64,000 nt of DNA. Origin: Candidatus Komeilibacteria bacterium (GTDB lineage Bacteria > Patescibacteriota > Patescibacteriia > UBA1558 > 2-01-FULL-52-15). Shown piece by piece: positions 3,567-52,885 of the stretch (the first letter of the stretch is position 1; every line of letters begins with the position of its first letter). The translations under genes were made by a program, and so were the position numbers. Below the pieces are notes generated by a model. That model searched no databases. It had not been told where the DNA came from and was given only the letters and a program-made list of their open reading frames with translations. Where the stretch lies: NCBI GenBank assembly GCA_043801745.1, contig JAZDLR010000013.1:9608-73607 (forward strand). Reading direction: 5' to 3'.

Positions 3567-5408
3567 ATGCTAAAATATTTTACCTTAGATCAGTCCGCCA
3601 AAAAAATATTTTATTTGTTAAATAAACTAACTTTGCTGACTTTGGTGATCGTGGTTTGTATATTAATCGTGCCACGGGCGGCCCGAGCCGCAGTCGGCGA
3701 TATTGCTGTCGCCAGCACAAAAACTGAAGCATCTCTAGATTTAGGAAATGCGGTGATTCAAGTCAAATGTTACGAAGGTGATTATACTAATTTAGGAACA
3801 ACTAATGATAGTGGAGTGTTGAGCGCGACTACTCCAGATCCGGCTTCAGGTTGTGATGATAATGAAGAGCAGATGGATTATAAGGTTATTAAGGATGGCT
3901 ATGTGACACTCACGGTTACTAATGTTGCTGGAGGTTGGCAAGCATTATCATTAAATACTTTAACAATCACTGGAGTAAAATATTCCAACAAGGTTTCCGG
4001 TATTAGTTCCGATGATGGCGCGGCTTGGACTAGTGGTACGGGTGTTACTGTTAAGACCGGTAATGCTTATGGCACGACCTGTACCTTTTATTCTAATTCT
4101 TGGTACTGTGCTGTGCCCTTAGCTGATACCGCGAAAGTGATTTATGTTGCCCGGGACGGTTATGTCACTGATACAACTATTTCCTTTACAGCAGATAGAA
4201 CTGTTGCTACCGAAGCGCAACAGGTTAAGGCAGTATCCTACGTTACCTACGCCTATATGCTGGCTTCTATCGTTAATGAAGTTGGAACAGAGATCTCAAT
4301 GTTGGCCACTGCCGTGGAAATCGGTGACGAAACTGGATTAACTACCTGTGTCGCGGGGGCTGTATCTGATCCCAATGCCTATTGGTCTTGTCCGGTAGTT
4401 TTAGCTAACAGTAACGGTACGATGGTGGTTCGAGTTACGGTCAATGGTTATGTTACTAAGAATTATCCTTTGGGTGCCGGCTTTAACAGAACTAACCCTG
4501 ACGGTACTGAGGCTAGTGTTGGTGTCACGGTTGATCCGATTGAAAGTGCTTTGAAGATCACGGTTTACGATGGTGCTACTGGCACAACTGCACTTACTGG
4601 TGCCAAAGTAGAAGCTGGTGATAATTTGGCAGTCTCCTGTAACGAGAGTGCCGGGGTTTATTATTGCGCCATACCTTTAGCTAATACGGCAACTTACGCC
4701 CGGGTGGTGAAAGATGGTTATGGCACACAATCACCTACCTATACTGACCGTACAGCTGCTACTGATGCTCAAGGAACCCTGACTGTTCATATGACTACTA
4801 CTACTGGCAGCGCCGGAAATGGTGGTAGTAGCAGTGGCGGATCTGGAACCTCTACACCGCCACCGGTAATACCACCGACCACTCCAATACCTCCGGTGAC
4901 TACGCCGGAGCCTCAGCCGGTAATTACCATGCCGGCATTAGACAGAATTCAGTCCACCATTGCACGCGAGCAGGAGCGCCTGCAAGCAGTTGACATTGCT
5001 TTGCGCGACAGATTATTGGGCCGCATCTTATTACAGGTCCAGGATCATGGCGAAGCTTGGTATTTAGACCCGGTCTCCCAGGTACGGTATTATCTGGCTG
5101 ATGGTCCGACCGCTTTTCAAATGCTGCGTCAATTTGGTTTAGGTATTACTAATGCTGATCTGGCTAATATTCCAGTTGCTACCGATACATCCAATAAGCC
5201 CTTAACCGTGGCAGCAAAGAATTTGCTAGATAGGTTGAAAGGGAAAATTTTACTTCAGGTTCAAAGTCACGGTGAAGCTTGGTATATTAATCCGGTTGAC
5301 GGCAAGAGATATTACTTGAAAGATGGTGCCGCGGCTTATGAGATTATGCGGTCGCTGTCCCTGGGTATTACTGATGCTGATCTGGCGCAGATCGGATTAG
5401 GTCGGTAA
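3567..5408 (+). CDS. secreted repeat protein
   Basis: N-terminal signal/TM. Four ~100-aa modules with conserved C...Y.C..P and GYVT motifs. PT-rich linker. Two tandem ~55-aa C-terminal repeats (GEAWY..P....RYYL.DG.A...M....LGIT.ADLA.I), also repeated at nucleotide level (about 4978-5160 vs 5215-5400). Confidence 0.7.
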   Translation: MLKYFTLDQSAKKIFYLLNKLTLLTLVIVVCILIVPRAARAAVGDIAVASTKTEASLDLGNAVIQVKCYEGDYTNLGTTNDSGVLSATTPDPASGCDDNEEQMDYKVIKDGYVTLTVTNVAGGWQALSLNTLTITGVKYSNKVSGISSDDGAAWTSGTGVTVKTGNAYGTTCTFYSNSWYCAVPLADTAKVIYVARDGYVTDTTISFTADRTVATEAQQVKAVSYVTYAYMLASIVNEVGTEISMLATAVEIGDETGLTTCVAGAVSDPNAYWSCPVVLANSNGTMVVRVTVNGYVTKNYPLGAGFNRTNPDGTEASVGVTVDPIESALKITVYDGATGTTALTGAKVEAGDNLAVSCNESAGVYYCAIPLANTATYARVVKDGYGTQSPTYTDRTAATDAQGTLTVHMTTTTGSAGNGGSSSGGSGTSTPPPVIPPTTPIPPVTTPEPQPVITMPALDRIQSTIAREQERLQAVDIALRDRLLGRILLQVQDHGEAWYLDPVSQVRYYLADGPTAFQMLRQFGLGITNADLANIPVATDTSNKPLTVAAKNLLDRLKGKILLQVQSHGEAWYINPVDGKRYYLKDGAAAYEIMRSLSLGITDADLAQIGLGR

Positions 5409-13055: not shown

Positions 13056-13940
13056 ATGATTTGGAACTATTTATTTATCGCTCTGATAATCGTTTCGGCC
13101 GGTTATTTACTGTCCCTTTTTTGGCGTCAGCGTAAGATGCTGGCCACTATTAATGTGGAGCGCGTCCCCGGCGTCAAGGATCAGCAAGTTAAAAGTCGTT
13201 TGTTAGAAGCTAAGTTGAAGCGGACCATTGGCGAACACTGGGGTAATGCACGCCGTTTTATCGGTTGGCATCCACGGAAATTATCTGACAGTATAAAATT
13301 CCTGCAGCAGCGCTTACAACAGTTAGAACGCGAGTACCGCCGGATTATTCATAAAGATCTGTCGTCCGAAGTGAAGAAGAGTAAAGCGATTGAAGATTTA
13401 TTGATTGGTGCCCGCACTTATTTGGATCAAGGTGAATATGCTAAAGCGGAAGAGGTTTTGATTGACGCCTTGTCACTCAATGATCATAACGTGGAAGCTT
13501 ACTTTATTTTGGCGCGGGTTTATCAAGGCAAGAAAGAATTAGATCATGCCCGTGAAACTCTGGAATATCTTTTGCGTCTGACTCATAATGAAGATCCTCA
13601 AGTTTTTGAGCAAATGGCCGCTTTATCTCTGGAGCGTGGCAATTTGAAGGAAGCAGAGGAGGAATATTTGCGTTCCATTTCTTTGGATGAAAATAATTAT
13701 CTTTATTATTTTGAGCTGGCCGGTATTTACCGTGATATGGAAGAATTAGTTCAGGCTTTGGAAATAGCCAAGAAGGCTTTGGTATTGGCGCCTAATAATC
13801 CCAAGATTTTAGATTTTCTAATTGAGCTGGCCATTGCGCAACAGGATAAAATTGAAGCTAAACAGTATCTGGAACGGTTAATGGAAGTTAATCCGGATAA
13901 TAATAAGATTGAAGATTTCCGGCAGAGGATTGAGGGTTAG
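13056..13940 (+). CDS. TPR-repeat membrane-anchored protein
   Basis: N-terminal TM then several TPR-like repeats. ATG directly after the fba stop. Confidence 0.6.
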   Translation: MIWNYLFIALIIVSAGYLLSLFWRQRKMLATINVERVPGVKDQQVKSRLLEAKLKRTIGEHWGNARRFIGWHPRKLSDSIKFLQQRLQQLEREYRRIIHKDLSSEVKKSKAIEDLLIGARTYLDQGEYAKAEEVLIDALSLNDHNVEAYFILARVYQGKKELDHARETLEYLLRLTHNEDPQVFEQMAALSLERGNLKEAEEEYLRSISLDENNYLYYFELAGIYRDMEELVQALEIAKKALVLAPNNPKILDFLIELAIAQQDKIEAKQYLERLMEVNPDNNKIEDFRQRIEG

Positions 13941-13987
13941 AAGTTAGAAGTTTGGAGTAAGAAGTAGGGGCAGATTTTTTATTCGTA

Positions 13988-14015
13988 TTGACAGTAATTA
14001 CCAATCTGCTAAGTT
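13988..14015 (+). promoter_or_regulatory. sigma70-like promoter upstream of the riboswitch
   Basis: TTGACA, 16-nt spacer, TAAGTT. Confidence 0.35.
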
Positions 14016-14034
14016 AACCGTACAACTAAATTAA

Positions 14035-14178
14035 TTACGTATCCAGAGAGTAGAGATGCTAAGGGACCGGCCCGATGCTCTACCTGCAACCAATTAAGTT
14101 TGGTGCAAATTCCGTCCTCATGAGTGGGGCGAAGATGCTTAAATGTTTTGGATACGTCGCAATTACAGCGACTTTTTT
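14035..14178 (+). promoter_or_regulatory. SAM-I (S-box) riboswitch with terminator expression platform
   Basis: Matches SAM-I conserved words: GGGAC.GGCCCGATG (K-turn region), GCAACCA...GGTGCAAATTCC (P3/J3-4), ATGAG and GATGCTTAA pairing with the 5' TTACGTATC (P1). Followed by terminator GTCGC-aattaca-GCGAC-TTTTTT. Confidence 0.65.
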
Positions 14179-14214
14179 CATATATAAGCGCCAATTCGAC
14201 GTACTATAAACAGT

Positions 14215-14249
14215 ATCACGCTATCTTTGTGGGGAACGTGATTTTTTTG
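14215..14249 (+). terminator. second intrinsic terminator
   Basis: ATCACG...CGTGAT stem followed by TTTTTTT. Confidence 0.45.
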
Positions 14250-14310
14250 TTGCAGTTCTTTTACATCATCTCCAATGTGCTGACAGTGCTTCATCTGACT
14301 GGAGGAAAAT

Positions 14311-14487
14311 ATGAAACGAAAGGTGCTCAAACAGACCGGATTGTCCGTTGACGAAACGCGAAGGGCGCTTAAAAGTGAAGATCCTGTTAAGATCGGATCT
14401 GGGCTGAAAGACCCAGTTTCCATTTTGATGCTAATTAAGCAGGTGGCATCCAGAAGGAGGAGTAAGACAAAACAGCACACAAACTGA
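14311..14487 (+). CDS. 58-aa basic hypothetical protein downstream of the SAM riboswitch
   Basis: Strong SD GGAGGA 5 nt before the ATG. Product MKRKVLKQTGLSVDETRRALKSEDPVKIGSGLKDPVSILMLIKQVASRRRSKTKQHTN. Absent from the ORF track because it is under 60 aa. Confidence 0.4.
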   Translation: MKRKVLKQTGLSVDETRRALKSEDPVKIGSGLKDPVSILMLIKQVASRRRSKTKQHTN

Positions 14488-14530
14488 AGGCGAATTACAT
14501 TTACGTTTAGTATCCCGCCTTTAGTTATCG

Positions 14531-14567
14531 AGCGGCATGTCCATCATGGGTGTGCCGCTTTTCTATT
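14531..14567 (+). terminator. intrinsic terminator after the small ORF
   Basis: AGCGGCA...TGCCGCT stem followed by TTTCTATT. Confidence 0.4.
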
Positions 14568-14599
14568 AAAAAAAACAGCCGATGAGGTTGTTTTTTTAA

Positions 14600-14686
14600 T
14601 GGTGGGCCGGGTAGGGTTCGAACCTACGAAGGCGCAAGGCCAGCAGATTTACAGTCTGCCCCGTTTGACCACTTCGGTACCGACCC
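14600..14686 (-). tRNA. tRNA-Tyr(GTA)
   Basis: Cloverleaf with anticodon loop CTGTAAA, long variable arm, GGTTCGAACC T-arm and encoded CCA. Confidence 0.85.
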
Positions 14687-14802
14687 ATAAGCCAAAGGCT
14701 TATTATTTTTGATTGTAAAAGATTTTTGTCTCTTATTGTGGGCCCTTGGCCCATGGAGCCGAGAATCCCGCAAAACTATTTCGTCAACTCTTATTTTAAT
14801 TT

Positions 14803-14878: not shown

Positions 14879-14918
14879 GGACTTTTAATTGGTGATTAAT
14901 GAACCTTCGTCAATGCGG

Positions 14919-15024
14919 GACGACCTACGGTTTATCCCGCCACCTTTATTAAATTTAAATGAAGGCGGGACCCCGCCAAAGGCGGTGGCAAAACCGTTGC
15001 TCTACCAGCTGAGCTATCTCGGCC
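14919..15024 (-). pseudogene. tRNA-Thr(TGT)-derived pseudo-tRNA with a 53-nt insertion in the anticodon loop and no T-arm
   Basis: 28 nt (TAGCTCAGCTGGTAGAGCAACGGTTTTG) and 16 nt (TAAACCGTAGGTCGTC) are identical to the adjacent tRNA-Thr. They are split by CCACCGCCTTTGGCGGGGTCCCGCC...GGTGGCGGGA. The 3' part lacks a T-stem and acceptor strand. Confidence 0.5.
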
Positions 15025-15031
15025 TATTCGC

Positions 15032-15154: not shown

Positions 15155-15254
15155 GGGCTACATTATTATACCTTATTGGTAAGCGTTTCTGATAGTCCTG
15201 GCGGCCAGCTCGACGTAACGACTAAGTTCTGACAGCGCGCTGTTAGCTTTTAGT

Positions 15255-15312
15255 TAAAAAATCCCCCGCGTGAGAGCACCAGGCCAAAACCTGATACTGC
15301 TTCACGCGGGGG
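15255..15312 (-). terminator. intrinsic terminator of the island 3 gene
   Basis: 11-bp stem CCCCCGCGTGA/TCACGCGGGGG followed by ATTTTTT on the minus strand. Confidence 0.5.
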
Positions 15313-15326
15313 AAAGGCGCGGCCGA

Positions 15327-15890
15327 CTACTTTACCTCGGCCTGCTCTTCAGGGTTCGCATAGACCGCCCAGTGGCAGGTCAGGCGCCTGAACTCGGACC
15401 AGGCCATGTGCTTCTCCAGCATGCCATCGTCAGTGACGGCGAGGATGGGGAAGCGACGGGCACCGTCCTTCAGCCAGTAGTCGTCTGGGAAACCCACTCC
15501 TCTCCTGGCACTCTTGATTGAGCTCGGGGTCATGGGGTCGTCCCAGGATCCGTCGTGGGGCAAGATGTCCTTGAGGCTCTCGAGTGTCGGAAATCTAGCA
15601 TGGAACGGTCCCATCCACCAGCCCGAAGCCGGCTGTCCGTACGGGAGGAGCGCTTGCTTCATCGTATTCAGGTTAGGCCGGATAACGCCGTGCAATATCA
15701 CTAGCTTGAAATTTCCCACGACATTGAAGGGAGGTCCCGTACCCCCCGAGTAAACCCACCCCCGAGGATCATCTCCGCAGGCGCGGACCAACTCCATGGG
15801 GTCGAATGGGGTTGCGAGCGTGAGCTGAAACACCTTGCTCACGCTGACCTGGTCGGTCTGGTCTTCGATGGTCACAATAGGTTCAGTCAT
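15327..15890 (-). CDS. hypothetical protein (GC-rich island 3)
   Basis: 187-aa ORF at ~60% GC. SD GGAGGA 6 nt upstream in the context CACCAAACCACGGAGGATACTATG. No recognisable domain. Confidence 0.55.
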   Translation of the reverse strand: MTEPIVTIEDQTDQVSVSKVFQLTLATPFDPMELVRACGDDPRGWVYSGGTGPPFNVVGNFKLVILHGVIRPNLNTMKQALLPYGQPASGWWMGPFHARFPTLESLKDILPHDGSWDDPMTPSSIKSARRGVGFPDDYWLKDGARRFPILAVTDDGMLEKHMAWSEFRRLTCHWAVYANPEEQAEVK

Positions 15891-16086
15891 AGTATCCTCC
15901 GTGGTTTGGTGTTCTTGTTCTCCTTCGCGACATCCGCGTGGTAAGCGCCATAGCTTCTCACCAGATTGTCCGTACAGGCGAAATTGTACTTACAGACTCT
16001 TAAAGGAACCACACACACCCTAACATTATTATCAGTAACGTCAAGGCGTAGGGATCCTTCCCAGGAGGTCGTATGATAATAAAAAG

Positions 16087-52393: not shown

Positions 52394-52413
52394 CAACGGT
52401 CGCAACAACAGCT

Positions 52414-52449
52414 CCCCCGTGTGCTTTTACAGGCACGGGGGAGTTTTTT
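52414..52449 (+). terminator. intrinsic terminator of the island 4 gene
   Basis: CCCCCGTG-tgcttttacagg-CACGGGGG followed by AGTTTTTT. Confidence 0.6.
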
Positions 52450-52452
52450 AAA

Positions 52453-52885
52453 CAGATAAGCCACCCCGCCTTGGCGGGGTGTGTTCGTTTTAAAGCGTAG
52501 CTCTTGAAGTACACATAGAAGGCGAAGAAACGGAAGGACAAGCTCTGCTCTTAGCAACTCAAATCATCCGATCTTTCTAGTTGTCCGCATACTAAGGATT
52601 GGCTTTGTTATACCCCTCGCCCCCTCGGCTTCGCTCGGGGCAGGCTTGAGGCCCTACTTTTGTAACCAAAAGTAGGGAAAAGTTTCGGGGGCGCGTAAGT
52701 CGCGTGGGTCTTTTCAGCTTAATCTTGCTTGTCGTGGCTATCAGTACGCGACCCCAAACCCCCTAAAAGATAAAATTAGCAGGTGTTGATTAAACAGTAG
52801 CGTTCTTACCTTTATCATATCAACTTAGGCCGCTACCGTAGGCAGCTAGAACAGAAACCTTCAGCGTTTAAGCTGAAGGTATGTT
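52453..52885 (+). ncRNA. copy 2 of the ~400-nt structured intergenic element
   Basis: Same 5' 45 nt (CAGATAAgCCACCCCGCCTTGGCGGGGTGTGTtCGTTTTAA). H3 is CCTACTTTTG/CAAAAGTAGG, the long-range helix is GGGGGCGCG/CGCGACCCC, and H5 is CCTTCAGC/GCTGAAGG. All are compensatory relative to copy 1. Confidence 0.4.

Follow-up and report, generated by a model that had tools for sequence, protein, structure and literature searches.

A 660-bp segment within a 64,000-nt stretch of a Candidatus Komeilibacteria contig (JAZDLR010000013.1; the whole stretch is called the window below) carries an S-adenosylmethionine (SAM)-I-type riboswitch aptamer of a variant subclass. The segment is laid out as a self-contained unit, with a promoter-like site, an antiterminator/terminator pair, a GGAGG Shine-Dalgarno (SD) sequence, an open reading frame (ORF) of 58 codons, and a strong terminator. 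The aptamer is very probably intact, being neither a chance match nor an obvious wreck. We propose that the segment is a transcription unit repressed by SAM, in which the aptamer would gate the 58-codon frame, and we assign this proposal a probability of roughly 0.5. We favor it because the combination of GGAGG and ATG is rare, the ORF has its own strong terminator, its frame is the best of the six, sister loci in other genomes provide a precedent, and a published system, DseA-DVU1170 of Desulfovibrio vulgaris Hildenborough, is built in nearly the same way.

The initial annotation of this DNA had called a SAM-I riboswitch from hallmark words, and these are indeed found where it placed them (GGGACCGGCCCGATG at 14063 to 14077, GCAACC...GGTGCAAATTCC at 14086 to 14113, and the P1 strands TTACGTATC and GATGCTTAA). 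The Rfam model of the family (RF00162) matched positions 14036 to 14141 over its full length (model positions 1 to 108), with an E value of 7.5e-08 in the local search (6.6e-06 when computed over the whole window), but the score of 41.1 bits falls under the gathering score of 44.4 bits. A check against this model had been proposed by the annotation; at gathering thresholds, Rfam reported five tRNAs and no riboswitch in the 64-kb window. In the alignment, we traced the deficit to P2, which has an insert of 6 nt, and to the shortness of P4 and of the P3 tip; sister copies that pass the threshold have these features as well.

We scanned metagenome contigs for the SAM-I core with an unusual "UGB" replacing the "UGA" of the kink-turn (k-turn). 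The scan yielded ten loci, of which 10/10 contained a SAM-I aptamer at or above the RF00162 threshold, and the exact P2 oddity of the window was found in 4 of them (L016, L020, L021, and L025; RF00162 scores of 44.8 to 53.2 bits). A covariance model, R1, was built from L016, L021, and L025 only, with the window left out; MAFFT misplaced the 3' ends of L020 and L026, so that R1 was limited to the three cleanly aligned sequences and the remainder were realigned. When run on the 64 kb, R1 recovered a single site, the aptamer of Table 1, with 79.8 bits (E value, 5.4e-18). The subclass members that it had not seen, L020 and L026, scored 94.7 and 89.5 bits, and ordinary SAM-I aptamers scored 36 to 56 bits.

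An anchored comparison with 10 SAM-I aptamers, in which a T. tengcongensis reference sequence served only as a guide, showed that the window keeps AUC-N-AGAG, AGGGA-NN-GGCCC, GCA-A-CC, GG-UGC, and AA-NN-CC. All ligand-contact positions are intact, including the A-U and U-A pairs of P1. Three of the four pairs of the pseudoknot between the P2 loop and J3/4 form in the window, where the variable pair is C-G; this pair is U-A in most sister aptamers and U-A, C-G, or A-U elsewhere. In an alignment of 11 aptamers that was fitted to the model, which biases the pair counts toward the structure, 91.2% of the cells in P1 to P4 and the pseudoknot were paired, versus 33 to 50% with the partners slid. Changes on both sides of a pair, i.e., compensatory ones, were seen in 17/31 pairs, and the observed values were reached in 0/500 shuffles. 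The full-model match, the intact ligand contacts, the compensatory change in the pseudoknot, and the single R1 match therefore bear out the SAM-I call, and the preserved pocket leads us to predict SAM as the ligand.

We then looked into the P2 helix, where the window departs from the family. In a standard k-turn, G.A and A.G pairs come after a bulge of 3 nt. The window retains G1b and A1n and can form just the first G.A; it has C at position 2b and no A.G pair, while the opposite strand of P2 has six additional nucleotides, AUGCUA. The resulting internal loop reads 5' AUGCUAA/3' GAUG, and the six subclass members share the form 5' AUGYUAA/3' RAUG. P2 can alternatively be drawn, in a way that is conserved in the six members, with A.G, U.U, and G.A pairs, a Y-R pair, and a UAA bulge; the Y-R pair is C-G, U-A, or U.G, with C.A in one member. 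According to the literature, the k-turn is needed for docking of the P2 loop in SAM-I. Since a different pk-turn can stand in for the k-turn, it is plausible that the window aptamer functions with its replaced k-turn. The members that could be placed belong to the candidate phyla radiation (CPR), the closest relative of the Komeilibacteria copy being from Candidatus Uhrbacteria. The P2 variant amounts to a natural test of whether the SAM-I k-turn can be replaced, a question hitherto probed by engineering only.

The departure in P2 could be taken to mark a variant of changed specificity, with a ligand other than SAM, as the subclass is also tied to non-methionine genes. We consider this very improbable: the changes affect an architectural turn, the pocket words AUC/AGAG, GCAACC, and GGUGC and the A-U and U-A pairs of P1 are unaltered, and one subclass member sits beside metK.

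Next to the aptamer, an expression platform can be drawn. The 3' arm of an antiterminator pairs with the 5' strand of P1 and J1/2 in a 12-bp helix (14037 to 14048 with 14146 to 14157) of -10.8 kcal/mol, versus -0.4 for P1. A transcript that ends at 14157 adopts the 12-bp antiterminator fold and thereby sequesters G14156 and U14157, which form the two bottom pairs of the first terminator, T1. This terminator was claimed in the initial annotation and was recovered by our terminator scan (14156 to 14172 plus T6). The overlap between antiterminator and T1 is just 2 nt, and the minimum-free-energy fold combines a 10-bp antiterminator with the full T1. Because these two can coexist, their exclusion must be kinetic, which we infer from folding. 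L020 and its Uhrbacteria homologue, L026, have a like design, in which ACGUAUCAAG pairs with CUUGAUACGU and is followed by GUCGCC...GGCGAU-U5.

The window shares with the SAM-I family (RF00162, clan CL00012) the P1-P4 junction, the pseudoknot between the P2 loop and J3/4, the core words, an intrinsic terminator, and the predicted OFF logic. It differs in the lack of a standard k-turn, in its score under the gathering score, and in the origin of the antiterminator, which comes from the 5' strand of P1 and J1/2 instead of the 3' strand as in SAM-I. The arrangement is probably a SAM OFF-switch. Transcription would start from a sigma-70-type promoter, and the first ∼110 nt of the RNA would fold as the aptamer. 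With SAM bound, P1 and the J1/2 pocket would be held, positions 14146 to 14157 would be freed, and the 5-bp GC stem of T1 would complete, so that transcription would stop at the U6 tract. Under low SAM, positions 14146 to 14157 would instead be paired with the 5' strand of P1 and J1/2, and the 12-bp antiterminator would ruin the pocket and remove the two bottom pairs of T1. The polymerase would then continue into the SD-led 58-codon frame and end at the third terminator, T3.

The promoter-like site was read from the sequence and was missed by a consensus scan, and its -10 element agrees with the consensus at just 3/6 positions. The sister loci have TTGACA, TTGAAA, or TTGACG as the -35 element and a -10 element equally placed, and we take the site as the putative promoter of the unit. 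The features are collected in Table 1.

TABLE 1 Features of the 660-bp segment and of its Uhrbacteria counterpart (window positions unless a locus is named)
Feature	Position	Strand	Evidence or remark
Lineage-specific segment holding the whole unit	13941-14599		Alignment A1
Promoter-like site	13988-14015	+	-35 TTGACA, 13988-13993; 16-nt spacer ending in TG, 14007-14008; -10 TAAGTT, 14010-14015; read from the sequence
SAM-I-type aptamer, variant subclass	14034-14143	+	RF00162 and window-blind model R1
P1 (TTACGTATC/GATGCTTAA)	14035-14043/14134-14142	+	
P2a	14050-14055/14078-14083	+	
P2 internal loop, nonstandard	14056-14062/14074-14077	+	
P2b	14063-14065/14071-14073	+	
P3	14085-14093/14100-14107	+	
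P4	14116-14119/14126-14129	+	
Pseudoknot	14068-14070 with 14112-14114	+	
Antiterminator 3' arm	14146-14157	+	Pairs with 14037-14048 (P1 5' strand and J1/2); 2-nt overlap with terminator stem
Terminator T1	14156-14178	+	Stem GTCGC/GCGAC, 7-nt loop, T6; terminator scan; -7.3 to -7.6 kcal/mol
T2, terminator-like hairpin (ATCACG...CGTGAT, then T-run)	14215-14248	+	Fold, -8.6 kcal/mol
Anti-SD UCUCCA (14269-14274) pairing with SD region UGGAGG (14300-14305)	14269-14305	+	Folding
58-aa basic candidate ORF	14311-14487	+	ATG start; ORF list
Strong terminator T3	14530-14568	+	14-pair stem, 14530-14560 (scan); -20.4 kcal/mol; 43 nt past the stop codon
A-run/T-run hairpin against the tRNA-Tyr 3' end	14565-14600		Inverted repeats I5 and I6; -15.4 kcal/mol; probably a bidirectional terminator insulating two convergent units
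Cys-rich 113-aa protein with CPCGC motif, Candidatus Uhrbacteria	L020, 5266-5607; L026, 5061-5402		Stands alone between trmD and khpA

Evaluation of the region revealed 5 terminator-like sites in 13800 to 14800, versus 1.1 ± 1.2 in shuffles, and the terminator scan flagged an additional hairpin within the ORF (14399 to 14416). Of the two further terminators in the initial annotation, the one past the ORF is clear (T3), whereas the one before it, T2, does fold but was not called by the scan, its loop being too long (14215 to 14242 plus the T-run). T2 and the anti-SD are housed in a 133-nt spacer (14179 to 14310) that is particular to the window: the sister loci have neither element, and the spacer matched no Rfam family. 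The sole plus-strand frame downstream is the 58-aa ORF, after which come convergent tRNAs, beginning with tRNA-Tyr on the minus strand from 14600; this is the gene order that had been described. No gene of methionine or SAM metabolism or transport lies downstream of the aptamer, and a search for metK in the window gave only noise.

We then analyzed the 58-aa ORF. Its GGAGG (14301 to 14305) lies 5 nt before the ATG at 14311, and its SD is indeed among the strongest of the window, as had been noted: GGAGG-N4-9-ATG occurs just 10 times on both strands, mostly at real starts (7 start ORFs of ≥100 aa, 2 head frames of <30 aa, and 1 is this ORF). By codon usage, the frame scores above the other five frames, with a log-likelihood ratio of -0.04 per codon versus 0.23 ± 0.09 for real 58-codon windows, 0.7% of which score as low. 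Conservation of the ORF in relatives, the point on which its coding status had been made to hang, was not found in any of the protein, metagenome, viral, and related-genome searches. A word-index protein search gave no match, nor did metagenome and viral contigs when scanned in translation; the ORF belongs to no Pfam or PHROG family and has no counterpart in the related genomes. Two phmmer matches were rejected as homologues, because both are long proteins made of tandem repeats, in which weak repeats add up to the score. Exact-sequence look-ups came back empty, and no public source lists a protein for this ORF, even though the collection includes the aldolase encoded in the window, which is identical to a protein of a Candidatus Komeilibacteria metagenome-assembled genome. 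Fold searches were pointless for this ORF and for the Uhrbacteria protein described below because their AlphaFold2 (AF2) models were too poor: the former had a predicted local distance difference test (pLDDT) score of 66 and a predicted template modeling score of 0.35, and the latter was unusable (pLDDT of 35).

At each of the sister loci L016, L020, L021, and L025, a promoter-like site and the variant aptamer are followed by a terminator and then by a short ORF with a strong SD in front of it and a further terminator behind it. These ORFs have lengths of 102, 113, 77, and 66 aa (113 in L020 and 77 in L021/L035), do not resemble each other, and belong to no known family in Pfam or PHROGs. They are likewise unrelated in sequence to the window ORF. 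The window and the sister loci are alike in the P2 variant and in the order promoter-aptamer-terminator-SD-ORF-terminator, and L020 and L026 share the antiterminator/terminator design as well; the sister loci differ in lacking the T2 spacer and, in the case of L021/L035, in adjoining metK. In L035 (1960 to 3481), the variant aptamer is followed by the 77-aa ORF, a strong terminator, and, 92 nt after the ORF, a complete 321-aa metK; the region upstream of metK is AT-rich and has no obvious SD. The word that defines the subclass had 0 matches in viral contigs.

One sister ORF could be followed across genomes. A homologue with 81% identity to the L020 ORF is present in a Candidatus Uhrbacteria genome (L026), where the leader is retained, and both loci have the order trmD (minus strand), aptamer, ORF, and khpA (minus strand). 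The ratio of nonsynonymous to synonymous substitution rates (dN/dS) is 0.17 and the differences are distributed 14/11/36 over the three codon positions, which indicates that this ORF is a real gene. A stand-alone short gene behind the variant aptamer is thus a recurring arrangement, with at least one genuine case. For the window, the strong SD, the dedicated terminator, and the four parallel loci, one of them coding, keep a coding reading alive, and we take the 58-aa ORF as a candidate for translation. The initial annotation had offered three readings, an orphan riboswitch, a small protein under riboswitch control, and a SAM-sensing small RNA, and all three retain some likelihood.

As the annotation rightly remarked, SAM riboswitches are normally found ahead of met, sam, or transport genes; there is a published exception of nearly the same layout. 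In D. vulgaris Hildenborough, the SAM-I riboswitch DseA is equipped with a sigma-70 promoter of its own and an intrinsic terminator, and is followed 129 nt on by a hypothetical ORF of 189 nt, DVU1170, with which it is cotranscribed; read-through goes up without methionine (bioRxiv 10.1101/803072). The window has the layout described there, with a gap of ∼133 nt and an ORF of 177 nt. The hosts are from different phyla, and DVU1170 homologues accompany DseA across Desulfovibrio species, whereas the window ORF is without relatives. Terminated DseA far exceeds the read-through product and binds the sahR mRNA in trans (bioRxiv 10.1101/803072).

This precedent can also be read differently: the riboswitch would be functional but the 58-aa frame would be no gene, and the product would be RNA, either the ∼150-nt leader acting in trans or a SAM-gated noncoding transcript of ∼540 nt. 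Such a role would be in keeping with the dominance of the terminated form of DseA and its binding of sahR mRNA, with the lack of a homologue, atypical codon usage, and low AF2 confidence of the ORF, and with the presence of two terminators and an anti-SD between aptamer and ORF. The mutually unrelated ORFs behind five subclass aptamers are also what one would expect if the RNA is what matters. Leaders of this kind are known from Listeria monocytogenes, in which the SAM-I leaders SreA and SreB act in trans on prfA. SreA precedes a transporter operon, and its likeness to the window is that a terminated SAM-I leader could serve as a stand-alone small RNA (sRNA). Several points speak against an RNA product. 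A chance combination of SD, ATG, and a 58-codon frame is unlikely by our rough arithmetic (∼3 non-gene SD-ATG pairs in the window, with ∼3% of random starts staying open). In addition, strong SDs are present at 4/4 sister loci, one sister ORF is under purifying selection, and no trans target can be named from the 64 kb. We regard an RNA product as possible but somewhat unlikely.

A role of the unit as antisense control of the tRNA cluster was considered and is unlikely, as L016, L020, L021, and L025 have no tRNA nearby and two strong hairpins insulate the units.

We then compared the genomic slot of the unit with that of relatives (∼80% protein identity). Homology to L001 and L002 ends just past the stop codon of a TPR gene and restarts at tRNA-Tyr (alignment A1), and what lies between that gene and the tRNA cluster differs among the relatives: a Peptidase_M15 gene in L001 and L002, repeats of tRNA fragments in L003, and an inverted tRNA cluster with a duplicated tRNA-Tyr 3' end in L031. 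Outside the aptamer core, nothing like 13941 to 14600 was found in any fetched locus. Since the slot differs among relatives and the segment has no matches, we consider the unit to be lineage specific and located in a rearrangement hot spot. It would have been acquired by this Komeilibacteria lineage, or else lost by every relative sampled, at a tRNA cluster that is prone to rearrangement. The segment is of ordinary composition, and when its borders were searched for an integration scar in the form of a directly repeated tRNA-Tyr 3' end, only short repeats at chance level turned up.

A slot of this kind could equally harbor a decaying relic, i.e., a SAM-I leader parted from its original gene, metK for instance, by rearrangement of the tRNA cluster, with the ORF as a chance frame. 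The subthreshold score, the mismatch in P1, and the short P3, P4, and T1 would fit such a history, as would the variation of the slot in every relative, the inversion with an integration scar in L031, and the metK gene that adjoins one sister aptamer and is absent from the window. We nevertheless hold a relic to be improbable. The invariant core positions are all intact, the pseudoknot has a compensatory C-G, the antiterminator-terminator design agrees with that of L020 and L026, the -35 element is a perfect TTGACA, the score deficit stems from features of sister copies above the threshold, and no gene fragment is detectable downstream.

Several observations weigh against a SAM-repressed unit that gates the 58-codon frame. 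The aptamer does not reach the gathering score of its family, has a P1 mismatch and short P3 and P4 helices, and lacks a standard k-turn in P2; an engineered swap of k-turn for pk-turn retained SAM binding but made it 1,000-fold weaker. T1 has only 5 bp and coexists thermodynamically with the 10-bp antiterminator, leaving an exclusion that would be kinetic only, and T2 and the anti-SD separate T1 from the ORF. By phmmer, the ORF has no homologue among 1.84 billion representative proteins, and its codon score is no better than that of spurious ORFs (the window ATG ORFs of 45 to 80 aa have a mean of -0.06 per codon, and 39% of them do as well as this ORF). Finally, none of the sequenced relatives of this genome carries the unit.

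A broader proposal is that a CPR subclass of SAM-I, with a non-k-turn P2 and an antiterminator from the 5' strand of P1, is wired to self-contained, fast-evolving short-ORF modules instead of methionine genes; we put this forward tentatively and find it rather doubtful. If true, the subclass would point to a SAM starvation response by small proteins or riboswitch-sRNAs in organisms that rely on a host for their metabolites. Another possibility is that the riboswitch acts as a portable regulatory cassette, placed before new cargo by recombination. If the switch is active, it would provide a direct handle on the low-SAM behavior of reduced-genome, host-dependent bacteria, and small genes of 58 to 113 aa without known family would be part of that low-SAM response. 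A search of the literature found no paper tying SAM-I riboswitches to Patescibacteria. Because this copy is subthreshold in Rfam and its ORF is not called in standard annotation, riboswitch regulation in Patescibacteria may be undercounted. According to a recent review, the Patescibacteria toolbox still lacks inducible expression, for which a native, compact SAM-responsive promoter-leader could be of practical use. The interest of the unit comes mainly from its CPR setting, the replaced k-turn, and the repeated tie to uncharacterized short genes.

The comparison of slots also brought up observations on the tRNA cluster and its surroundings. In L031 (6870 to 7340), the tRNA Thr-Tyr-Trp cluster has the opposite orientation to that in the window, with an ABC transporter in place of rpmG, and the duplicated tRNA-Tyr 3' end is a 20-nt copy, GAACCCTACCCGGCCCACCA, found again ∼90 nt downstream, which resembles an integration scar. 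In L003 (4973 to 5275), directly past the TPR gene, there are three tandem units of ∼115 bp, each opening with GCCGTCGTAGCT, which is like a tRNA 5' end. L002 has an 81-aa GIY-YIG-like ORF (4134 to 4379, minus strand) between tRNA-Tyr and tRNA-Thr, a further sign that the cluster attracts insertions. Far from the cluster, at 52409 to 52485, the window weakly matches the Rfam model of the Bacillus sRNA ncr1175 (33.2 bits versus a gathering score of 60; E value, 0.043), probably by chance through terminator-like sequence. Positions 15200 to 15900 have a GC content of 0.59 to 0.64 versus ∼0.42 around them and contain a 187-aa ORF (15327 to 15890, minus strand) that matches neither Pfam nor PHROGs; the distance between tRNA-Trp and rpmG is ∼80 nt in L001, so that this part of the window looks like a foreign insertion in the tRNA-rpmG cluster. 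Lastly, a paralogue of tRNA-Thr(UGU) that neither ARAGORN nor Rfam called is found on the minus strand of the window (14885 to 15031) and of L002 (∼4590 to 4700). It retains an intact acceptor 5' arm, D arm, and anticodon stem and has a degenerate T arm, and a GC-rich, hairpin-capable insert of ∼53 nt sits exactly within the anticodon (TTTTG|insert|TAAACC). The paralogue is absent from L001, and the L002 copy carries the same insert together with a compensatory change in the anticodon stem.

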